From IMG/VR virus record IMGVR_UViG_2529292997_000024: 35,482 nucleotides of DNA. The stretch is one strand, 5' to 3'. Positions 7,047 through 33,850 of the stretch are shown piece by piece. The stretch comes from a virus (Duplodnaviria; Heunggongvirae; Uroviricota; Caudoviricetes; Peduoviridae). Every line of letters begins with the position of its first letter. The first letter of the stretch is position 1. The position numbers and the translations under genes are program-made. The notes below the pieces were generated by a model, which did no database searches, was not told the origin of the DNA, and saw nothing but the letters and a program-made list of their open reading frames with translations.

Positions 7047-8237
7047 TTAATTGCTGTTAACCGAGGTGACCAGATTTGCCAGGTATTTATCGGTAATACG
7101 CTGGCGCAGGGTCAGGTTTTCAAGAGGAGGTACCGGTGTATAGTCGTAGTCGATATACAGTTTTCCGGCCTTGAGGGTTTCCGCATCGTTGGATTCTTCG
7201 CTGAACCAGCAGGTCGCATCCACGATATAGCCGTTTGTTTTCAACTCACGGAATTTGGCATTGATGCCGTCAACGATGTCGCGAATCAGCGTTGCGGTGA
7301 TGGGCTTGTCCACCGCCCACATGTGCGCCTCAGCCATCGTGTCGGCCAGCACCTGCGCGGTGCGGGTGTAGTTTTCAAAGAGGAACAGCGGGTCATCAGA
7401 GCAGGTACGGTTACCCCAGAAGCGGAAACCGTCACGGCGAATCAGCGTTGTGACGCCTGACTCGTTAAGCAGGTCAGCATCGGTGCCGGACTCCTGCAAA
7501 TCCCAGAATACGGACGCGCTGATGCCGGTAACACCGTTCACCCCGACGTTGGACAGCGTTTTATGCCAGCCCTGCTCCTGGTCGATTTTAGCGCGCAGAC
7601 CCAGCGCACGGGCGGTGGCATACGCGGTGGCGGTGGTACTGGTGACCGTATCCCATGCGAGGAAATCCGGCCAGATGACCATCAGCTCACGCTGGCTGAA
7701 ATTCTGGCGGTAGGCTTTCACCTCGGAAATGGTCTTACAGCCCCATGCGCTGATATACCCGAAAGCGCGCAGCTTCTGACAGACCGATGCCAGTGCAACA
7801 GCCACCTCTTTGGTGTCCAGTCCCGGCACGCCGAGAATACGCGGTTTAACACCGGTTACTGACTCCGCCGCCAGCAGGGCTTTCAGTCCGGTGTACTGAC
7901 CGTTTTCGTCGGTGGTGCCGATGATATTGGAAACGGTCTGCGCAAGTTTCGTTTCCTCGTCGTCGCCGGTGCCGTCTTCCACGCGCACAACAACGGTGAC
8001 CGGTTTTGACTGGTCGGCGATGGCCTGCAGCGACGCCGCCAGCGTGCCTTTTTTACCGGCCTTTGCAATTGCGCTCTGCACATTGGTAATCAGCACAGGT
8101 TTATTGAGGGGAAAGGTTTCCGCATCCGCATCGCTGGCCGTGCAGACCATGCCGACAATGGCAGTGGATACGGTGGAAATGACGCGGGTGCCGTCGTTAA
8201 TCTCCAGCACCTGCACGCCGTGATGATAGTCACTCAT
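7047..8237 (-). CDS. FI: Contractile tail sheath protein FI (396 aa)
   Basis: Length and position match P2 gpFI. Confidence 0.9.
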   Translation of the reverse strand: MSDYHHGVQVLEINDGTRVISTVSTAIVGMVCTASDADAETFPLNKPVLITNVQSAIAKAGKKGTLAASLQAIADQSKPVTVVVRVEDGTGDDEETKLAQTVSNIIGTTDENGQYTGLKALLAAESVTGVKPRILGVPGLDTKEVAVALASVCQKLRAFGYISAWGCKTISEVKAYRQNFSQRELMVIWPDFLAWDTVTSTTATAYATARALGLRAKIDQEQGWHKTLSNVGVNGVTGISASVFWDLQESGTDADLLNESGVTTLIRRDGFRFWGNRTCSDDPLFLFENYTRTAQVLADTMAEAHMWAVDKPITATLIRDIVDGINAKFRELKTNGYIVDATCWFSEESNDAETLKAGKLYIDYDYTPVPPLENLTLRQRITDKYLANLVTSVNSN

Positions 8238-8513: not shown

Positions 8514-9152
8514 TTAACCACAGATGATATTGAAACGTTCTCCGGAAATCTTGACCATAATGTCAGACAGTTCGCTGACGGCATGGGCTTCAGATGATCC
8601 CGGAGCGTCAGGCTGAACAGCTATTACCGAAGCTCCACTTGCCAGCCCTGCTTTTATACCCGCAGATGCATCCTCAAATACCACGCATTCACCAGGCTCA
8701 AGGCCCAAAGCCAAAGCTGCTTTGATGTAACCCTCGGGACTTGGTTTTCCCGTCATTACATCTTCTGCACACACCATTACTATGGGTAAGGGGAGATTAG
8801 CCGCTTTCATCCTGTTTTCGGCAAGCATTCTGCCTGCCGAAGTGACAAGTGCCCAGCTATCCGGTGGCAGTTTTGATAAGAGTGCAGCGGCCCCTTTTAC
8901 TTCAGTAACGCCTTCTGTCGTGTTGATTTCAACCTCTTCGAGTGAGGCCGCGATTTTATTGGTTTTCTCACCTGCACCAATAAAATGCGTCAGTGTATCA
9001 ATCGTTTGCCGCCCGTGTGCGTAAGCAATCACAGCCTGAGTATCAAGACCGTATTCTGCACAAAAATCTCTCCAGACGCTTTCCACTACGGCTGTTGAAT
9101 CAACCAGCGTACCGTCCATATCGAATAAAAAACCCTTAGCGTTGAATATCAT
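8514..9152 (-). CDS. HAD-superfamily (class IA) phosphatase/hydrolase, cargo gene in the Z/fun slot
   Basis: N-terminal HAD motif I FLFDMDGTLVDS, plus a KPSPEG and a C-terminal FEDASAGIKAG motif. Start set at the second ATG (9152), which has an AAGGA Shine-Dalgarno with 6-nt spacing; the ORF track starts at 9158. Confidence 0.7.
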   Translation of the reverse strand: MIFNAKGFLFDMDGTLVDSTAVVESVWRDFCAEYGLDTQAVIAYAHGRQTIDTLTHFIGAGEKTNKIAASLEEVEINTTEGVTEVKGAAALLSKLPPDSWALVTSAGRMLAENRMKAANLPLPIVMVCAEDVMTGKPSPEGYIKAALALGLEPGECVVFEDASAGIKAGLASGASVIAVQPDAPGSSEAHAVSELSDIMVKISGERFNIICG

Positions 9153-9181
9153 TGCCATTCCTTAATGGTTGCAGAAGAAAG

Positions 9182-9820
9182 TTAATCAAACCATGTTTTT
9201 TCATCACCTTTCGCTACTCTCAGGCTGACAGCAATCTGCTCAGGCACAATTCTTGAAAGCGACAATTCAGGCAGGTCGTTGACATCAAAAAAATCAGCAT
9301 CGAGTGACTCATGGCTGATTGACAGGCTGCCACCTACTTCTTCACAGAGAAAAATCAGCTTGTAAACATGCCAGGGTAAAGGCGGATGGCCGTGAAGATT
9401 ACGATCCCAAACTCCCAATAGTTTAGTCACTCTGACTTTTAATCCGGTTTCTTCTTCGACCTCTCGACGCACAGCTTCAGAAGGTGTATCTCCAACATCT
9501 GCCCATCCGCCAGGAAGACTCCATAATCCATCTGCAGCCTCTTTCACCATCAGAATACGATTATTGCGCAGGATAAACGCACGCACATCTGTTTTGGGCG
9601 TCGCGTAACCCGTTTCCGATACATGAAACAAATCATTGCGGCTAATATCAAACTGCGAACTCAGCAGTCCAGCGGCAATTTCACGCAAGGCTTCATAGCG
9701 TTCCTTGTCAAAGACGTCTTTTGAATAGGTCAGGCCTGACTGCGCGAGGGCCTTTAGTCTCTGGGCAACAAAAATAAGCTTTTCTTGGGTCAACACTTCA
9801 GACATGTTTTTCATCTTCAT
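9182..9820 (-). CDS. Nudix hydrolase with an N-terminal extension, cargo gene in the Z/fun slot
   Basis: Nudix box GGWADVGDTPSEAVRREVEEETGL (Gx5Ex7REUxEExGU pattern); lies between G and FI, where P2 carries Z/fun. Confidence 0.7.
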   Translation of the reverse strand: MKMKNMSEVLTQEKLIFVAQRLKALAQSGLTYSKDVFDKERYEALREIAAGLLSSQFDISRNDLFHVSETGYATPKTDVRAFILRNNRILMVKEAADGLWSLPGGWADVGDTPSEAVRREVEEETGLKVRVTKLLGVWDRNLHGHPPLPWHVYKLIFLCEEVGGSLSISHESLDADFFDVNDLPELSLSRIVPEQIAVSLRVAKGDEKTWFD

Positions 9821-9968: not shown

Positions 9969-10496
9969 TTATTGCGGCATTTCCGGCCATTTAGGATTTG
10001 CAGGCTCCACACGACTGACCAGAACGCTGTAGCGTTCCCATGCTTCCAGTCGGCTACGCTCCTCATCTGTTGCCATGTTCAGTCTGACCGCGCGCTCCAG
10101 CGGCAAAATCACGGATTCAGCATCTGCAAGAAGTCTGGCTTTCCGGTTTTCTGCCTGCTGCAGCAATTCCTCTGCCGTATAAATGCGTTTAATCACTTTG
10201 CCGTCCTTAAACATCCAGCCCCCTGAAATGTCCGCCCGTCGGTTAGTAGTAATATCCGCCACTTCAACAACACTTAATCCATCCGGTCTGATAGCTGTCA
10301 CATCCTTTTCCACATAGCGGATAATATTATCTTTGTCGTACGCTATTTTTATCGTGTCATCAGCAAAATACTTTTGTTCTTCGTACCAGTTCTTACCATC
10401 TTCTGAAAAAAACCAGACAACATCAAAGTCCTTTGTCAATTGATATTGTTCAACCGTTTTTGGATTACCCGCCGTAATATTTTTTAAATGCTGCAT
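9969..10496 (-). CDS. G: Tail fibre assembly chaperone G (175 aa)
   Basis: Length and position match P2 gpG, immediately downstream of H. Confidence 0.8.
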
Positions 10497-22125: not shown

Positions 22126-23898
22126 ATGACCATCACCACAGACACCACTCTTTTACACGACCCGCGTCGTCAGGCGGCGCTGCTGTACTGGCAGGGGTTT
22201 TCCGTGCCGCAGATTGCCGCCATGTTGCAGATGAAACGCCCGACAGTGCAGAGCTGGAAACAGCGCGACGGCTGGGACAACGTTGCCCCCATCAGCCGTG
22301 TCGAAATGAGCCTGGAAGCGCGGCTGACCCAGCTCATCATCAAACCGCAGAAAACCGGCGGTGACTTCAAGGAAATTGACCTGCTGGGACGCCAGATTGA
22401 ACGACTGGCACGGGTAAATCGTTACAGCCAGACCGGCAGCGAGGCAGACCTTAATCCGAACGTCGCTAACCGCAACAAAAGCGGGCGGCGCAAACCGAAA
22501 AAGAATTTTTTCAGTGACGAGGCCATCGAAAAGCTGGAGCAGATTTTCTTTGAGCAGTCTTTCGACTATCAGTTGCACTGGTATCGCGCCGGGCTTGAGC
22601 ACCGCATCCGCGATATCCTGAAATCCCGCCAGATTGGCGCGACGTTTTATTTTTCCCGCGAGGCGCTGCTGCGCGCCCTGAAAACCGGTCATAACCAGAT
22701 TTTTCTGTCGGCCAGTAAAACGCAGGCGTATGTGTTCCGCGAATACATCATTGCCTTTGCCCGGCTGGTTGACGTTGACCTGACCGGTGACCCGATTGTC
22801 CTGGGCAATAACGGTGCAAAACTGATTTTTCTCGGCACCAACTCCAACACCGCACAGAGCCATAACGGCGACCTGTACGTCGATGAGATTTTCTGGATCC
22901 CGAATTTTCAGGTACTGCGTAAGGTGGCATCAGGTATGGCCTCACAGAGTCACCTGCGCTCGACCTATTTCTCCACCCCGTCCACGCTGGCGCACGACGC
23001 CTACCCGTTCTGGTCAGGTGAACTGTTCAACCGGGGACGCGCCAGCGCCGCCGAACGCGTGGAAATCGACGTCAGTCATAACGCCCTTGCCGGTGGGCTT
23101 CTCTGTGCGGACGGCCAGTGGCGGCAGATTGTCACCATTGAGGACGCCCTGAAAGGCGGCTGCACGCTGTTCGACATTGAACAGCTCAAACGCGAAAACA
23201 GCGCCGACGATTTTAAAAACCTGTTCATGTGTGAATTTGTTGACGACAAGGCGTCGGTGTTCCCGTTCGAGGAGCTGCAACGCTGCATGGTCGACACGCT
23301 GGAAGAATGGGAAGACTATGCGCCGTTTGCCGCCAATCCGTTCGGCTCCCGCCCGGTATGGATTGGTTACGACCCGTCACACCGTGGCGACAGCGCCGGA
23401 TGCGTGGTGCTGGCACCACCGGTGGTGGCCGGTGGCAAATTCAGAATACTTGAGCGTCACCAGTGGAAAGGCATGGACTTTGCCACTCAGGCGGAATCCA
23501 TCCGCAAACTCACCGAAAAATACAACGTCGAATACATCGGTATTGATGCCACCGGCCTCGGTGTCGGCGTGTTCCAGCTCGTGCGCTCGTTCTATCCCGC
23601 CGCGCGCGATATCCGCTACACACCGGAAATGAAAACCGCAATGGTGCTCAAGGCAAAAGACGTTATCCGCCGTGGCTGTCTGGAATATGACGTCAGCGCC
23701 ACCGACATCACCAGCTCGTTTATGGCTATCCGAAAGACCATGACCAGCAGCGGACGCAGCGCCACCTATGAGGCCAGTCGCAGCGAGGAAGCCAGCCACG
23801 CCGACCTCGCCTGGGCGACCATGCACGCCCTGTTAAATGAGCCACTCACCGCCGGTATCAGCACCCCGCTGACATCCACCATTCTGGAGTTTTACTGA
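22126..23898 (+). CDS. P: Terminase large (ATPase) subunit P (590 aa)
   Basis: 590 aa from MTITTDTTLLHDP; stop overlaps the Q start (tgatg). Confidence 0.9.
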   Translation: MTITTDTTLLHDPRRQAALLYWQGFSVPQIAAMLQMKRPTVQSWKQRDGWDNVAPISRVEMSLEARLTQLIIKPQKTGGDFKEIDLLGRQIERLARVNRYSQTGSEADLNPNVANRNKSGRRKPKKNFFSDEAIEKLEQIFFEQSFDYQLHWYRAGLEHRIRDILKSRQIGATFYFSREALLRALKTGHNQIFLSASKTQAYVFREYIIAFARLVDVDLTGDPIVLGNNGAKLIFLGTNSNTAQSHNGDLYVDEIFWIPNFQVLRKVASGMASQSHLRSTYFSTPSTLAHDAYPFWSGELFNRGRASAAERVEIDVSHNALAGGLLCADGQWRQIVTIEDALKGGCTLFDIEQLKRENSADDFKNLFMCEFVDDKASVFPFEELQRCMVDTLEEWEDYAPFAANPFGSRPVWIGYDPSHRGDSAGCVVLAPPVVAGGKFRILERHQWKGMDFATQAESIRKLTEKYNVEYIGIDATGLGVGVFQLVRSFYPAARDIRYTPEMKTAMVLKAKDVIRRGCLEYDVSATDITSSFMAIRKTMTSSGRSATYEASRSEEASHADLAWATMHALLNEPLTAGISTPLTSTILEFY

Positions 23899-24932
23899 TG
23901 AGCAAGAAAAAAGGGAAAACACCGCAACCTGCAGCAAAAACAATGACCGCCAGCGCCCCGAAAATGGAGGCGTTCACCTTTGGTGAGCCGGTGCCGGTAC
24001 TCGACCGCCGTGACATTCTGGATTACGTCGAGTGCATCAGTAACGGCAGATGGTATGAGCCGCCAGTCAGCTTTACCGGTCTGGCAAAAAGCCTGCGTGC
24101 TGCCGTGCATCACAGCTCACCGATTTACGTCAAACGTAATATTCTGGCCTCGACATTTATCCCGCATCCGTGGCTTTCCCAGCAGGATTTCAGCCGCTTT
24201 GTGCTGGATTTTCTGGTGTTCGGTAATGCGTTTCTGGAAAAGCGTTACAGCACCACCGGTAAGGTCATCAGACTGGAAACCTCACCGGCAAAATATACCC
24301 GCCGTGGCGTGGAAGAGGATGTTTACTGGTGGGTGCCGTCCTTCCATGAGCCGACACCTTTCGCGCCCGGCTCCGTGTTTCACCTGCTGGAGCCGGATAT
24401 TAATCAGGAGCTGTACGGCCTGCCGGAATATCTCAGCGCCCTTAACTCTGCCTGGCTGAATGAGTCGGCCACGCTGTTCCGCCGCAAGTATTACGAAAAT
24501 GGCGCACATGCCGGATACATCATGTACGTCACCGATGCCGTGCAGGATCGCAACGATATCGAAATGCTTCGCGAAAACATGGTTAAGTCGAAAGGCCGCA
24601 ATAACTTTAAAAATCTGTTTCTCTATGCCCCGCAGGGGAAAGCCGACGGCATTAAAATTATCCCCCTCAGTGAAGTGGCGACGAAGGACGATTTTTTTAA
24701 TATCAAAAAAGCCAGCGCCGCTGACCTGCTGGACGCGCACCGCATCCCCTTTCAGTTGATGGGCGGCAAGCCGGAGAACGTCGGGTCGCTGGGTGATATT
24801 GAGAAAGTGGCAAAGGTCTTTGTCCGCAATGAGCTTATCCCGTTACAGGACAGGATTCGGGAAATAAACGGCTGGCTCGGTCAGGAGGTCATCCACTTTA
24901 AAAACTACTCACTGGACACTGACAACGGCTGA
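23898..24932 (+). CDS. Q: Portal protein Q (344 aa)
   Basis: Length and position match P2 gpQ, adjacent to cos. Confidence 0.9.
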   Translation: MSKKKGKTPQPAAKTMTASAPKMEAFTFGEPVPVLDRRDILDYVECISNGRWYEPPVSFTGLAKSLRAAVHHSSPIYVKRNILASTFIPHPWLSQQDFSRFVLDFLVFGNAFLEKRYSTTGKVIRLETSPAKYTRRGVEEDVYWWVPSFHEPTPFAPGSVFHLLEPDINQELYGLPEYLSALNSAWLNESATLFRRKYYENGAHAGYIMYVTDAVQDRNDIEMLRENMVKSKGRNNFKNLFLYAPQGKADGIKIIPLSEVATKDDFFNIKKASAADLLDAHRIPFQLMGGKPENVGSLGDIEKVAKVFVRNELIPLQDRIREINGWLGQEVIHFKNYSLDTDNG

Positions 24933-25101: not shown

Positions 25102-25120
25102 GTGCTTTCCCCGCCTCGCC
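25102..25120. other. cos: cos site: 19-nt cohesive-end sequence of P2-type phages
   Basis: gtgctttccccgcctcgcc is the reverse complement of GGCGAGGCGGGGAAAGCAC, the P2 cohesive end as I recall it; lies about 170 bp beyond the Q stop. Confidence 0.75.
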
Positions 25121-25170
25121 CGCCCGCTTCGTGGGGCGGTTTTAATGCAGATGCATGTGAACACTCGAGA

Positions 25171-25200
25171 TTGACTGGATAAGACCTAAGGTGCATTAAT
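25171..25200 (+). promoter_or_regulatory. Candidate sigma70 promoter for the DprA-like/PRTase-like cargo operon
   Basis: -35 TTGACT at 25171-25176 and an extended -10 (tg-c-attaat, about 25192-25200) with 17-18 bp spacing, in AT-rich DNA upstream of 25259. Confidence 0.4.
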
Positions 25201-25258
25201 TTTTTGTTTTTTTACATGCAGTTTGATGCAAGAACATGCCCTCTAAAGTCTTGGTTTA

Positions 25259-26308
25259 ATGTGCTACACTTTTATACAAACCTATGATAAAAGCGATAAA
25301 AAATCTTCCATTTTGGCGAACATTATGACGGATATTGAAACAGCTCGATGGAACACAGAAAGTGCCGCTTTGTTGGCACTATCAGAAATACATGGCGTTA
25401 GTTATTGGACTCTATATAAAGTTGCTCAAAAGGGAATCAGATTTAGAGACATTGTTACCAGCCAAACATTAGCCAACTTTGAGTATCTACTTGGAGTAAA
25501 ACTTCATCGCCAACCTTATTATTTGAATGAAGGCAATTGGTCTGTTTTTCGGGACAGCATGATTTCTACGGCTAAAATATTACTCACACATTATCATAAT
25601 AGTGGTTACAAAATCATCCACCATGGTTCTCCGAGCTATCCAGACAAGTTGAATGACCTGTCTGAGCCGCCTTTCTGGTTGTTTGCTCAAGGCAATGTAT
25701 CCTTGCTAGATAAAAAGTGTGTTGGAGTTGTCGGCACCAGAAACCCAACCGCACTTGGAATTTATTTAACTCAAGCAGTAATCTCGCAATTTATAGATTC
25801 GGATTATTCAACTGTAAGCGGTTTAGCATATGGTATAGATCAATCTGCACATGAAGCATCCCTGTTATTTAAAATACCGACAATTGCTGTGTTAGGTACT
25901 GGCGTAAACTCAAATTATCCCAAAAATAGTGGCGAGATGAGAGGCCATATTGTAAATAATGGCGGACTGATTCTTACTGAGTATTTACCAAACCAAAAAC
26001 CATCACAGGAAAACTTTGTTCGTAGAAATAGAATTCAAGCAGCTTTAAGTGATGTATTGATCCCAGTTGAATGGGGCCTAAAAAGTGGGACATCTCATAC
26101 TGTGAGATATGCTGCTCAATTAAAAAGAGCGATACTTTGTCCTTTACTTAGGGGAACTACACCTCAAGAAGAGATTAAACATGCCTTGTCAGAGTACTCA
26201 GCTACGATAATGAATATTCCACTATCCGATTTTAAAGACGTGCAAAGCTTAATTAAATCAGCATCCGGTGTAAAAACACAGCAACTTTCTCTTCTGGGAG
26301 ATGAATAA
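25259..26308 (+). CDS. DprA/Smf-like (DNA processing protein A fold) protein; ShosA-like candidate
   Basis: Rossmann-type DprA motifs CVGVVGTRNPTALG, SGLAYGIDQSAHEA, IAVLGTGVNSNYP, LILTEYLP and NFVRRNRIQAALSD; AT-rich; start could instead be the ATG at 25325. Confidence 0.7.
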   Translation: MCYTFIQTYDKSDKKSSILANIMTDIETARWNTESAALLALSEIHGVSYWTLYKVAQKGIRFRDIVTSQTLANFEYLLGVKLHRQPYYLNEGNWSVFRDSMISTAKILLTHYHNSGYKIIHHGSPSYPDKLNDLSEPPFWLFAQGNVSLLDKKCVGVVGTRNPTALGIYLTQAVISQFIDSDYSTVSGLAYGIDQSAHEASLLFKIPTIAVLGTGVNSNYPKNSGEMRGHIVNNGGLILTEYLPNQKPSQENFVRRNRIQAALSDVLIPVEWGLKSGTSHTVRYAAQLKRAILCPLLRGTTPQEEIKHALSEYSATIMNIPLSDFKDVQSLIKSASGVKTQQLSLLGDE

Positions 26309-26309
26309 T

Positions 26310-27584
26310 ATGTATTTAAAGGCAGTTATATTTTCAATCGCAGATGTTGTATTACCATTAACATCTAACACTCAACCTCAGGAACTAAAATCTAGAATCG
26401 ACTCTGAATTACGTAAGTTGTTTGCGTTTTTGTCATCAAAAGGGATTAAAGTTATCTTCTTGACAAATAAAAATAGAAACGTGAGAACACATGACGGGAT
26501 CGTAACACTAGACGAATACCTAAAAAGGAAATTCCCAGAATCAATTCACTTTTGCCGTGAACTCGACAACAACATACCAGCAAAACAAACAGGGAAGGCC
26601 ATAGATTTCATCATGGCTGCGTTAGAATTAAAACGAAACGAAATGATCTATGTAGGGCGTTCTCAGGAAGACTTACAAGCAGCTACCAACGGGAATACCC
26701 TATTTATTAATGCGACCTGGTATGAACCGGTTACTGAGTACGGTTTTCAATTTTCAGAACCCAAAGAAATCGCTAGATTTATTGATGTCTTTTGCTTAAG
26801 AGAGCAGTTGTGGGGATGGCAAGGGCATTTTAATGAAGATGTTCACTACTACGCCTTAGCACCATTTAGCACATATGTCCCTGAATTTACAATGTATTCA
26901 GCCAATGCAAGAGACCTCGCAAAGCTATCGGTTGGAAGCCCCGATTTTTGGATAAGATATCTTGGTGCTAGCATTTATTTCTCTGGCTTAAGTGAAGGAG
27001 CAAGTTTTATAACCACCTACGTTGGACATAACGCTGAAGATCCTTATAAACTAGCAAACATTATGGAGCATGACCTAAAAGGTTTAGCAGTCTCATTCAA
27101 AGGAAAGTATCTAAAAGATCTATTCTTACGACATACAACAGCTATTAAATCACAGCAAGCTCGGATAGCTAAGCAAGAAGTAAACATCACATCTCAAATA
27201 AACACCGTTAATTTAAATCCTGCCCCTATTAAAAACCTCATCACCGGCGAAAGATATACCAACCCTCCTAAATTGAAAGGTAAGAAAATATTAGTTATTG
27301 ATGATTTTTGCACTGAAGGAAATGCTCATGAAACAGCCAGAATGTATCTAAAAGCTGCAGGCGCAAATGTAATAAATATATCGTGGTTAAAAACCATCAA
27401 TCGTGACGTTTCTATCTGTGAACCAACTCGCAAGATACGGCCATGGGAGGCCAATACACTTGATGTTGATGACATTAACTATGTCGGTACGATTGGTTAT
27501 GCTGAAAATGTAACTCACGGTAGTGCACCTCAAGTGTTATCAGAAAAAATTCAACAATATGATAACTGGGACTGGCCACAATAA
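26310..27584 (+). CDS. PRTase-like (phosphoribosyltransferase-type PRPP-binding motif) protein with a large N-terminal region; ShosT-like candidate
   Basis: C-terminal KKILVIDDFCTEGNAHETA resembles the type I PRTase PRPP loop. Start set at the ATG at 26310, which has a GGGAG Shine-Dalgarno with 9-nt spacing (alternative ATG at 26301 overlaps the upstream gene by 8 nt). Confidence 0.7.
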   Translation: MYLKAVIFSIADVVLPLTSNTQPQELKSRIDSELRKLFAFLSSKGIKVIFLTNKNRNVRTHDGIVTLDEYLKRKFPESIHFCRELDNNIPAKQTGKAIDFIMAALELKRNEMIYVGRSQEDLQAATNGNTLFINATWYEPVTEYGFQFSEPKEIARFIDVFCLREQLWGWQGHFNEDVHYYALAPFSTYVPEFTMYSANARDLAKLSVGSPDFWIRYLGASIYFSGLSEGASFITTYVGHNAEDPYKLANIMEHDLKGLAVSFKGKYLKDLFLRHTTAIKSQQARIAKQEVNITSQINTVNLNPAPIKNLITGERYTNPPKLKGKKILVIDDFCTEGNAHETARMYLKAAGANVINISWLKTINRDVSICEPTRKIRPWEANTLDVDDINYVGTIGYAENVTHGSAPQVLSEKIQQYDNWDWPQ

Positions 27585-27600
27585 ATTAATCCCATAATTT

Positions 27601-27630
27601 AAAGTGCCCCCTAATAATGGGAGGCACTTT
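27601..27630. terminator. Hairpin between the convergent PRTase-like gene and gene A; possible bidirectional terminator
   Basis: aaagtgccccc / gggaggcacttt inverted repeat flanked by A/T runs; the U-tract is weak in both directions. Confidence 0.4.
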
Positions 27631-27759
27631 AAATATTAAGAAGATAATGTCATTAAGCGAAATTTAACTATAATTTAAAACATTACAATTATTATTTTTT
27701 AAAGTTTACTATTACCCAATCCATCAATAAGACCTGTATTTATTCGTAATTTAATAGCC

Positions 27760-30015
27760 TTACCACTCATCAATCACTGGATATTTGAATTTTTTATTAT
27801 CATAAATCACCATCGCCCCACGCGCCAGCGCCTCAAGCTCCCATCGCTGAGGCCTGATACCGTTCTGAGCAAGGTCAACGCGGATACGGGTAATTTGCAA
27901 TCGTTCCGGCCGGGTCAGCCTGGCCGATGGTGCAATTTCATGTGGTTTTAACGGGCTTCCGTTTCTTTGCTGACGATTTGGTGTTCTCAGGCCGTGTTTT
28001 AATGCGCCCCTGAGCACCCTCACGACCTCCGGGTCATTCCATTCGATAACACCGTCATCAACCAGATTAAGCACTGCTGCGGCGTGTTCAGAAGGTGTGG
28101 GAGCCGGTAACGAAGTATCACCACTGGTGAGCTTTCCACAGTTATTGACAGGACTCCGAGGCGCGGCGATGCCGCTTTTTAAAGTCAAAGGCTCAACGAC
28201 CGGAACTTTCGGCACAATGCGCCAGTCCGTCGTTCTGGTGATATGAATATGACGCGCGCCGAGATGCGGCGCGTAAATGCCGACCACTCTCTCGACTTCT
28301 TCCTCGTACTCGTTAACTTCATCCGACGGGCTACGGGCGACTCTGACAGTCTGACAATCGCGCGGGACATTTGCCCCACCCTGCGCGCTGATATACAACG
28401 CAAAATCACCACTGTCTGCGGCGGCGCGTGCAGCCTCGACGCGCTCGTCAAACTCATCAGCAATGCTGACGCCGCGCGGCAATTTGCGTAGTTCACGGTA
28501 AGCCCCCATTGTCGGCAGGCCAACCGTTTTAAATTGCGGGATGCGCCACGTTGACGCCCATGCGGTAACAGCCGCTGCAGTGTCTTTCAGCGGCCTGCCG
28601 GTGTCGTTATCGAGCTGACCATCCAGTGCATAGCCGTCGATGTTTTTTGAAATGTATTTCGCGATATATCCCGCAGCACCGCCCCGGTTAAGGTGTTTTG
28701 CCTGAAAACGGTTTCGCGCGGCTCCTCTTTCGTCGCCATCCTCTTTGAGCGCATAGCGACGCATGATTTCGATAATCTGGTTACGCTGGCGTGAATTACA
28801 AAAAAGCATCATATGCCAGTGCGGCGTTCCGTCGTGGTGTGGCTCGACGACACGCAAACCGTAGACCTGTAAATCATTATCCTTGAATGCCGTGCGCATC
28901 AGGCTCCAGATACGGCAGAGATAACGCTGCGCATCCTTTGGATTAAATGCCTCATCGTTCCAGCCGTGATTAAGCTGCACGGTTTTACTTTCGCCTTTTC
29001 CTACCTGACGTGTCGGGTGATACTTTGACGGCGCGGTCAGCGTGATAAACATCCCCACATCACCCTCTGCAGCGGCGTAACGCTCAATACCGGCAATGGT
29101 GTTCATCAGCTCCATCCGGCGAATTTCAGGATTAGAAATACTGCCCATCACCTTACTGATAAGGTCGATGCGCTCGCCGGTTTCCCTGTTTTCAAGGTCA
29201 CACGATTTAAGAAATTCCAGATTTGCCTGGCGGCGCGCACGCACATCACGAATGGCGTGTTTACTGGCATAAGGAGAACGGTCTTTATTGACCTCCCCGA
29301 CAGCTATCAGTAACGCTTCATGCCAGCGCATACGCTGGCCTTTAAGCTGATGAGTCCACCACTCATCGTTAAACAGACGGGCAATGGCAGAATATGCCTG
29401 CCTCGTGGTCATCTGTCTTTTACGGTATTTTTTCCAGTAGAGAGGGGAAATATTGAAAGCTCGTGCAGCGCCAGCAACATGACCATACAGGTGATCCTGA
29501 GCCTCATCCGTAAACAGTGATTCTTTTTCGCCATGCGCATCCACCCAGGCATCGCTGAGTTCCTCATACATCATGAAAAGCTGCGATGAGATACGGGCGG
29601 CAAACTTTTTCAGCTCCTTGTCATTCATTCCCGGCAGGCGCGCATAGTGATCACGCTCTGCCAGAAACAGCAACGACGCGTCGGTGTTCATTTCATGGCG
29701 CTGATTCACACGCTCAATGCGCGGCCATAAACGACGCTGAAAAGTGGATGTGAGGAAATAAAACCCGTGCACCGGGCTTTTATTGCGCCGGATGTAGTCA
29801 TAGCGTGAAGTAAACAGCGAGCGCAAAAAGTAAGGCAGGCGGTTAATCGTGGATAAAACACCTTGCACCTGACGCATCTCGTCACGTGTAAGGGGTCTTT
29901 CGCGCCCGACGGCCTCGCGTGGCGCGTTCCATGCATAAGCACCGGTAAACGTCTTACCGGTGCCTGCGGCAAATGCTGACGGAGGGACAAAACGCCCGGA
30001 GGCTTTAACGGCCAT
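27760..30015 (-). CDS. A: Replication initiation protein A (rolling-circle nickase)
   Basis: Position and length (751 aa from the first ATG at 30015) fit P2 gpA (about 761 aa as I recall); the ORF track extends 14 codons further to 30057, where the codon is TTG. Confidence 0.88.
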   Translation of the reverse strand: MAVKASGRFVPPSAFAAGTGKTFTGAYAWNAPREAVGRERPLTRDEMRQVQGVLSTINRLPYFLRSLFTSRYDYIRRNKSPVHGFYFLTSTFQRRLWPRIERVNQRHEMNTDASLLFLAERDHYARLPGMNDKELKKFAARISSQLFMMYEELSDAWVDAHGEKESLFTDEAQDHLYGHVAGAARAFNISPLYWKKYRKRQMTTRQAYSAIARLFNDEWWTHQLKGQRMRWHEALLIAVGEVNKDRSPYASKHAIRDVRARRQANLEFLKSCDLENRETGERIDLISKVMGSISNPEIRRMELMNTIAGIERYAAAEGDVGMFITLTAPSKYHPTRQVGKGESKTVQLNHGWNDEAFNPKDAQRYLCRIWSLMRTAFKDNDLQVYGLRVVEPHHDGTPHWHMMLFCNSRQRNQIIEIMRRYALKEDGDERGAARNRFQAKHLNRGGAAGYIAKYISKNIDGYALDGQLDNDTGRPLKDTAAAVTAWASTWRIPQFKTVGLPTMGAYRELRKLPRGVSIADEFDERVEAARAAADSGDFALYISAQGGANVPRDCQTVRVARSPSDEVNEYEEEVERVVGIYAPHLGARHIHITRTTDWRIVPKVPVVEPLTLKSGIAAPRSPVNNCGKLTSGDTSLPAPTPSEHAAAVLNLVDDGVIEWNDPEVVRVLRGALKHGLRTPNRQQRNGSPLKPHEIAPSARLTRPERLQITRIRVDLAQNGIRPQRWELEALARGAMVIYDNKKFKYPVIDEW

Positions 30016-33666: not shown

Positions 33667-33694
33667 AATCTCCCTTACACGGGCTTATTTTTTA
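33667..33694. repeat. Right copy of the 28-bp prophage attachment core
   Basis: Exact 28-bp direct repeat of 1507-1534, 79 bp downstream of the int stop. Confidence 0.85.
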
Positions 33695-33850
33695 TGCATA
33701 AGCCGTATCCTGGTCACCGTCTTCCATTGACCACATCGATAGAATCCCCCTTCATAACACGATGCCTTTCACGTAACGGCATCGTGCTCGTACAGATTCC
33801 GGCTACGCACAACCAGAACGCGCATGTTTGACGCTTACCAAAAAATATTC

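Follow-up and report, generated by a model that had tools for sequence, protein, structure and literature searches.

An AT-rich island at positions 25140–27759 of the analysed window, a stretch of 35,482 nucleotides from a P2-like prophage, contained only two open reading frames (ORFs), located on the plus strand at 25259/25325–26308 and 26301/26310–27584. The GC content of the island was 0.371, against 0.533 for the remainder of the prophage (0.557 for genes P and Q, 0.531 for gene A), and it represented the window's lowest-GC stretch of 2.6 kb, in agreement with the first-pass annotation, which had described an AT-rich insert between cos and replication gene A. On the left side it is preceded by the portal gene Q (23898–24932, plus strand), an ORF annotated as "phage portal protein" in the collinear records of APEC O1 and phage P24C9, and by the cohesive-end site cos at 25102–25120 on the minus strand. 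The latter was identified by an exact match to GGCGAGGCGGGGAAAGCAC, the 19-nt cohesive-end sequence of P2, with 0 chance matches expected. Phages P24C9 and 10W are deposited as linear records, both ends of which lie within about 12 nt of this sequence. On the right side lies gene A of the minus strand (27760–30015), encoding the nicking endonuclease of phage replication and recognized by the Pfam family Phage_GPA (E=1.3e-122). Its start was placed by reference to the CDS of 2256 nt annotated as "replication endonuclease" in the collinear APEC O1 record; the maximal ORF extends to 30057. The entire window is collinear with Peduovirus P24C9, as judged by the order and sizes of the ORFs, and the prophage has cyaR as its integration site, with yegQ and yegS on either side (CyaR and the att repeats were located). 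With Q and A as the left and right anchors, the two genes occupy the place of the variable genes found between Q/cos and A of P2-like phages; the flanks and the published definition of this hotspot both agree with the earlier assignment of the island to the P2 tin/old cargo slot. The pair is almost certainly accessory cargo of the cos-proximal Q-A hotspot.

The two genes, designated shosA and shosT after the system to which they are assigned below, are adjacent and co-directional, as expected for an operon, and both converge on gene A. The TAA stop codon of shosA occupies positions 26306–26308, and shosT could start either from ATG 26301, overlapping shosA by 8 nt, or from ATG 26310, leaving a gap of 1 nt, with GGAG located 9 nt upstream of the second start (junction sequence, ggagATGAATAATATG). 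Both the adjacent or overlapping stop and start and the transcription opposite to gene A had been read correctly at first pass, the former being visible at 26301–26310. For shosA, an in-frame ATG at 25259 would add 22 amino acids, and this extension (25259–25324), aligned to APEC O1 and to a 95.8%-identical variant to look for coding constraint, had zero substitutions and hence offered no variation from which constraint could be read. The start at ATG 25325 was chosen since the PADLOC profile, the RefSeq protein, and the crystallized constructs all begin there.

The best candidate for a sigma70 promoter of shosA-shosT was found upstream of both possible shosA starts, at 25171–25200 of the plus strand, and comprises TTGACT (25171–25176), an 18-nt spacer, and TGcATTAAT with the -10 hexamer at 25195–25200. 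This site came from a relaxed scan, whereas the strict scan revealed no site upstream of shosA, and the number of promoter-like sites that it counted over the whole region (7) did not exceed that in shuffled sequence (8.3 ± 2.4). The sigma70-like promoter proposed earlier is therefore retained only as a plausible candidate, whose moderate match to the consensus does not stand out statistically against an AT-rich background. APEC O1 and the 95.8%-identical variant both retain the -35 hexamer, the variant having lost the TG, and the active published clones contained the native upstream region. Downstream of shosT, in the AT-rich DNA that separates it from the convergent gene A, a strong hairpin was located at 27597–27634 (minimum free energy −21.8 kcal/mol, z = −4.8 versus shuffles). 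It was not called by the terminator scan because no T-run follows it; judged from its sequence, it could possibly stop transcription of both shosT and gene A.

The product of shosA (25325–26308, plus strand, 327 aa) is a DprA-like antitoxin, as indicated by Pfam, PADLOC, PDB, and RefSeq matches. The Rossmann-type motifs of DprA/Smf noticed in the first gene were borne out by the Pfam domain DNA_processg_A (E=9.8e-60, residues 113–317). The PADLOC ShosA profile matched over positions 1–327 of 327 with 764.6 bits, starting at residue 23 of the long ORF, and the protein was 100% identical to PDB entries 9VZO and 8ZVA and to the APEC O1 RefSeq CDS. It is DprA-like rather than DprA proper because its scores fell below both NCBIfam equivalog cut-offs (171.2 bits versus 191.15 for TIGR00732 and 128.6 bits versus 495 for PRK10736).

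The toxin gene shosT (26310–27584, plus strand) encodes 424 aa (427 aa if translation begins at ATG 26301), with a HAD-like pyrophosphatase domain in the N-terminal part and a phosphoribosyltransferase (PRTase) domain in the C-terminal part. Pfam matches to Pribosyltran, Hydrolase, and HAD_2 were weak, the HAD and Pribosyltran ones each falling in the half of the protein where that domain is expected. Pribosyltran (PF00156) reached 22.0 bits, below the gathering cut-off of 26.3, and covered residues 306–360 only; the Pfam check suggested for this gene thus failed at the threshold, whereas the PADLOC ShosT profile matched at full length (979.5 bits, positions 1–427 of 427). The PRPP-binding-loop-like motif reported previously was present as ILVIDDFCTEGNAHETA (residue 330 when the protein is counted as 427 aa). 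Within it lie the catalytic residues designated D331/D332 in the published numbering, which is based on 424 aa; R56 of that numbering is present as well. The protein was 100% identical to PDB entries 8ZVB, 8ZVC, 8ZVD, 9W2P, and 9W2Q and to the APEC O1 CDS. That it has a PRTase fold is known from the crystal structure determined for the identical protein and not from the profile match.

Taken with the published phage protection, the full-length PADLOC matches and the complete identity to the PDB proteins uphold the proposed ShosTA-type module, in which a DprA-like antitoxin is paired with a PRTase toxin. We are highly confident that the island represents ShosTA, a toxin-antitoxin system directed against phages, carried as cargo of a P2-like prophage, and no finding speaks against this identification. 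The locus is already known: published work on these very proteins covers cloning, phage challenge, crystal structures (apo and with PRPP), and mechanistic analysis. They are 100% identical to ShosA and ShosT of E. coli APEC O1 (ABJ01487/ABJ01488; pFR105), and the two loci agree in gene order, in the junction, and in lying within a P2-like prophage between cos/Q and A. The coding DNA differs by 5 synonymous substitutions, and the upstream sequence is identical from 25137; 15 further substitutions fall in the stretch from the end of Q to the spacer behind shosT, 14 of which lie at positions up to and including 25136. The second variable slot of the APEC O1 prophage carries a different cargo than here.

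The first-pass annotation had further suggested that the order of the genes and the large N-terminal region of the toxin might represent a variant. A novel form with the antitoxin preceding the toxin and an extra toxin domain could be argued from the name "TA", which suggests the reverse order, and from the second PADLOC ShosT profile, which is far shorter (237 positions). However, both features belong to the reference system, in which the order, as read in the APEC O1 record and in distant homologues, and the two-domain toxin are the same as in the 100%-identical pair studied here. Homologues with 31%–41% identity on plasmids of Pseudomonas fragi, Piscirickettsia salmonis, and Rhizobium leguminosarum likewise have the DprA-like gene 10–14 nt upstream of a full-length HAD/PRTase gene. 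The identity to the PDB proteins and the APEC O1 record, together with these distant loci, refutes the variant, which retains practically no probability. The locus adds nothing new to biology, and its value is mainly one of calibration, since a defense system in a phage cargo hotspot was rightly recognized from raw sequence alone.

All evidence on the function of the identical proteins was obtained with plasmids carried by laboratory strains. Rousset et al. (2022) cloned the APEC O1 locus ("DprA + PRTase", pFR105) from the same P2 hotspot with an insert that begins in the 3' end of Q, found protection against T7 and lambda, and listed it as system #9 with 246 occurrences among 18,150 P2 hotspot loci (Table S5B). 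Mechanistic work on the system comes from Pu et al. (2025) and Yang et al. (2026). Under the native promoter, APEC O1 shosA-shosT reduced T7 plating about 10^6-fold. ShosT alone is toxic and is counteracted by ShosA. Its PRTase domain binds PRPP and is needed for killing (D331A/D332A abolishes toxicity), and the N-terminal HAD-like domain hydrolyzes pyrophosphate and raises toxicity, which R56A weakens slightly. Purine metabolism is disturbed as a result, with aberrant DNA duplication, filamentation, and death. With four common purines, ShosT showed no activity. ShosA, a DprA-like homodimer, binds single-stranded DNA (ssDNA) and RecA and offsets the damage via recombination; since it does not bind ShosT, the pair is a type IV toxin-antitoxin system. 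ShosA is intrinsically unstable and its level drops after infection. T7 Gp0.7 shuts off host transcription, so that ShosA is not replenished, and phage ssDNA or replication intermediates may draw ShosA from RecA. The pre-made ShosT then halts both the infected cell and the phage, that is, acts by abortive infection, although the early culture collapse typical of this outcome was not seen by Pu et al.

The two mechanistic papers differ on the favored trigger, transcription shut-off or ssDNA competition. An alternative in which phage ssDNA or replication intermediates are sensed directly, by competing ShosA off RecA, with passive decay of ShosA after transcription shut-off no longer the main route, would be consistent with neutralization requiring the ssDNA-sensitive interaction of ShosA with RecA, and with published escape mutants of T7, SECphi4, and SECphi18 in genes for SSB and primase-helicase. 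We regard it as possible but somewhat doubtful, because co-expression of T7 SSB with ShosTA was not toxic, while that of Gp0.7 was, and because chloramphenicol or rifampicin alone activates the system and ShosA protein drops upon infection. The ssDNA and transcription shut-off routes are not mutually exclusive.

As a genuine toxin-antitoxin system whose antitoxin is labile, the cassette might also serve mainly as an addiction module that stabilizes the prophage by killing cells that lose it, with defense being incidental; plasmid homologues do adjoin other toxin-antitoxin modules. This function is improbable, since a P2 prophage, once integrated, is very stable anyway, the P2 slot holds old/tin and many validated defense systems, and the cassette alone protects up to about 10^6-fold against T7.

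The cassette was found in 30 of 5,426 complete E. coli genomes, one copy per genome, and all 25 of the 25 loci listed were located between the portal and replication-endonuclease genes within P2-like prophages. In this sample it is not a ubiquitous pair at unrelated chromosomal sites, which the first-pass annotation had named as evidence that would count against a defense module. Phages P24C9 and 10W carry an identical cassette. These figures also bear on a housekeeping role, in which a DprA/Smf recombination mediator would be combined with a nucleotide-salvage PRTase, without toxin-antitoxin or defense functions. Genome annotations ("DNA-processing protein DprA" for the first gene, "hypothetical protein" for the second) and the DprA-like binding of ssDNA and RecA would suit such a role, but we give it next to no credence in view of the rarity and location of the cassette, the sub-threshold equivalog scores of ShosA, the toxicity of ShosT alone, and its inactivity on common purines. 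The other cargo slot of the prophage contained a NUDIX+HAD pair. A link of this pair with ShosTA was checked because ShosT perturbs nucleotide metabolism, and was rejected: 22 complete E. coli genomes had NUDIX+HAD and 30 had ShosTA, with zero overlap.

As a defense system of this prophage, ShosTA would operate as follows. shosA and shosT would be transcribed as one operon from a constitutive promoter just inside cos, and their translation may be coupled across the 1-nt gap or 8-nt overlap. The operon would be expressed from the lysogen and so allow the prophage to guard its host against T7-like and lambda-like phages. There is a slim chance that in the native lysogen the cassette has a role beyond those described with plasmid clones, in that it engages the gpA-driven rolling-circle replication of its own carrier, or acts on P4 satellites or rival P2-like phages; the sequence contains no pointer to any of these roles. 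Rolling-circle replication driven by gpA generates ssDNA, and the phage might have to evade or exploit its own ShosA/RecA sensor.

Several known systems share components with the one described here. In PsyrTA/RqlHI the antitoxin is likewise DprA-like, and the literature groups PsyrTA with ShosTA. However, the PADLOC PsyrA profile gave 83.6 bits with the ShosA protein of the window, about 9 times lower than the ShosA profile, and neither protein matched the PsyrT profile, so the window encodes ShosTA and not PsyrTA. PRTase effectors of retron systems are noted in the papers, but the reverse transcriptase and msr/msd of retrons are missing from the island. ShosA has the DNA_processg_A Rossmann domain in common with DprA/Smf proteins and is similar to structures 3UQZ, 4LJR, and 3MAJ (E=1e-15 to 1e-22), whereas its N-terminal region of about 110 residues is different and it is paired with a toxin, for which it acts as the antitoxin. 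Type I PRTases, such as adenine PRTase (APRT), share with ShosT the PRPP-binding loop with an acidic pair (VIDDF), and the PRTase fold in the ShosT crystal structure resembles APRT. Unlike them, ShosT is monomeric, with a non-canonical six-stranded core and a long PPi loop, and is fused to a HAD-like pyrophosphatase. The old and tin genes of P2 lie in this same slot next to cos, flanked by Q and A, and are also prophage-borne accessory genes excluding other phages; their proteins and mechanisms are unrelated to ShosTA, the two-gene operon found here being a toxin-antitoxin pair.

The window contains a complete P2-like prophage that is collinear gene for gene with the deposited phage Peduovirus P24C9. 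It is bounded by att core repeats at 1507-1541 and 33667-33701, which share 94% identity across 35 nt, and a second imperfect repeat (70%) lies just inside or beside them at 1567-1610 and 33710-33753. The cyaR sRNA gene was found at 1445-1530 (Rfam CyaR_RyeE, 100.7 bits), placing the integration at its 3' end. The prophage is flanked by host genes for a peptidase U32 and a DAGK/YegS-type kinase; from the gene order of E. coli K-12, we take these to be yegQ and yegS, respectively. The P2 cohesive-end site (cos) was located at 25102-25120 by an exact match to its 19-nt sequence, with 0 matches expected by chance. Since the portal gene Q ends at 24932, left of cos, and the replication gene A is a minus-strand ORF ending at 27760 (Phage_GPA, E=1e-122), the AT-rich island between them lies exactly in the Q-cos-A slot, as the first-pass annotation had proposed. 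In the reference phage P2 this slot is occupied by old and tin, and it is a hotspot of anti-phage cargo (Rousset et al.).

The island (25140-27759) is the most AT-rich 2.6-kb stretch in the window, with a GC content of 0.371 versus 0.533 in the remainder of the prophage, 0.557 in the genes P and Q to the left and 0.531 in gene A to the right. Only two ORFs of any size were present, both on the plus strand (25259-26308 and 26301-27584) and thus opposite to gene A, with which the second gene is convergent. The junction reads ggagATGAATAATATG; the first gene stops with TAA at 26306-26308, and the second could start either at ATG 26301, with an 8-nt overlap, or at ATG 26310, after a 1-nt gap and with GGAG 9 nt upstream, so the ORFs are overlapping or adjacent, as had been noted. 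The RefSeq start of the second gene, shosT, is 26310, yielding a 424-aa product that agrees with the literature numbering of catalytic residues. For the first gene, shosA, the start at 25325 (the second in-frame ATG, 327 aa) is common to the PADLOC profile, RefSeq, and the crystallized constructs. A longer form, with 22 additional codons from 25259, appears only in the annotation of phage P24C9; the added segment is invariant throughout the compared sequences.

The shosA product contains a complete DprA domain (Pfam DNA_processg_A, E=9.8e-60), in line with its earlier assignment to the DprA/Smf type. It fell short of the equivalog scores that NCBIfam sets for true DprA and is a DprA-like protein rather than a DprA orthologue. 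The expected Pribosyltran domain of ShosT did not reach significance: Pfam gave only sub-threshold matches, to Pribosyltran around the VIDDF loop and to HAD hydrolases in the N-terminal third. PADLOC profiles matched both proteins end to end (ShosA, 764.6 bits; ShosT, 979.5 bits). A Protein Data Bank search revealed 100% identity of ShosT to entries 8ZVB, 8ZVC, 8ZVD, 9W2P, and 9W2Q, and of ShosA to 9VZO and 8ZVA, all derived from genes ABJ01487 and ABJ01488 of E. coli APEC O1, the strain carrying the reference ShosTA. The coding sequences of APEC O1 and the window differ by five synonymous substitutions and have identical translations, and the upstream regions are identical from 25137 onward. 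The original observation is confirmed, with the promoter as a caveat, and its interpretation as a ShosTA-type module is supported, save for the remark on a variant.

The APEC O1 P2-hotspot locus, cloned as plasmid pFR105, protected against T7 and lambda; its insert begins within the 3' end of Q and therefore carries cos together with the native upstream region (Rousset et al. 2022). ShosTA was independently listed as defensive, and a shosA deletion was not obtained, possibly due to toxicity (Millman et al. 2022). A native-promoter construct decreased T7 plating about 10^6-fold; ShosT alone was toxic, ShosA rescued the cells, and D331A/D332A abolished toxicity (Pu et al. 2025). The same work assigned residues 1-164 of ShosT to a HAD-like pyrophosphatase and 165-424 to a PRPP-binding PRTase, and reported that ShosA is unstable and that the trigger is T7 Gp0.7, acting via host transcription shut-off. 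Yang et al. (2026) described ShosT as a monomeric, non-canonical PRTase and ShosA as an ssDNA-binding homodimer requiring RecA binding, and put forward ssDNA competition as a trigger.

As others have shown with identical proteins, ShosT uses or sequesters PRPP, disturbing purine metabolism and damaging replication, and ShosA offsets it indirectly, through RecA-dependent recombination. Once infection halts the supply of ShosA or diverts it, stable ShosT is left to arrest both cell and phage. In the window, shosA and shosT probably form a single operon expressed constitutively from the lysogen. Of the sigma70-like promoter suggested earlier, the best candidate upstream of shosA was only moderate (TTGACT at 25171-25176, an 18-nt spacer, and TGcATTAAT), but a stricter scan missed it and showed no excess of promoter-like sites in the AT-rich DNA. 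A 15-pair hairpin at 27597-27634 (-21.8 kcal/mol, z = -4.8), in the AT-rich spacer between shosT and A, lacks a T-run on both strands and may stop both transcripts.

The cassette was found in 30 of 5,426 complete E. coli genomes, in one copy each and always on the chromosome. Portal and replication-endonuclease genes flank it at all 25 listed E. coli loci, and the only deposited phages carrying it are P24C9 and 10W (100% identity). The pair is therefore not a ubiquitous housekeeping one scattered over unrelated chromosomal sites, and the results named beforehand as counting against the first-pass interpretation were not obtained. In E. coli strain 4114 (NZ_CP071328.1; locus L008, 434-1402), an IS5-family element has entered the presumed promoter region, between cos and shosA, leaving shosA and shosT intact. 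Two genomes (e.g., E. coli ESBLEC_HM50, L007) harbor a diverged allele (95.8% DNA identity) of the cassette, equivalent to window positions 25140-27700. ShosT of this allele has 18 substitutions (96% aa identity) versus five in ShosA (98%), and the candidate extended -10 no longer has its TG.

A second cargo slot was observed between the tail-fibre assembly gene G (9969-10496) and the sheath gene FI (7047-8237). Its two minus-strand genes, with a GC content of 0.47 over 8514-9820, encode a Nudix_N-containing NUDIX hydrolase (9182-9820) and a sugar-phosphatase-like protein of the HAD-IA type (8514-9158). In PADLOC, the former had only a generic NUDIX-domain match to the candidate PDC-S07 (36.8 bits) and the latter no match; the pair is a possible candidate for a role in defence or counter-defence. 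It occurs in 22 of the 5,426 genomes, none of which carries ShosTA, so the two cargoes assort independently. Since their combination is the same as in P24C9 and absent from all 5,426 complete E. coli RefSeq genomes searched, the window probably comes from a lysogen of a P24C9-like phage from outside this set.

Plasmids of Pseudomonas fragi, Piscirickettsia salmonis, and Rhizobium leguminosarum carry full-length homologues with 31-41% identity, and in all three a DprA-like gene precedes the HAD/PRTase gene by 10-14 nt. On the Piscirickettsia plasmid (L004, 637-6230), an MqsR/MqsA toxin-antitoxin pair directly precedes the homologue and HNH endonuclease and terminase genes follow it, suggesting that this homologue, too, has a phage-plasmid or prophage-like setting. 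On Rhizobium plasmid p3 (L005, 3779-5312), a second, convergent pair of a DprA-like and a hypothetical gene adjoins the homologue. A plasmid of Streptomyces sp. NBC_01220 (L006, 2414-5864) encodes a distant ShosT-like protein (~25% identity, 541 aa), followed by a DprA-like protein and a ComF-family protein, ComF having a PRTase fold; this different arrangement may represent a related but distinct module. The first-pass annotation had regarded the gene order and the large N-terminal region as possible signs of a variant. This reading was rejected, since the reference APEC O1 system has the same shosA-shosT order and N-terminal HAD-like domain, and both recur in the three homologues with 31-41% identity. 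The ShosTA system of the window is one already known in detail.
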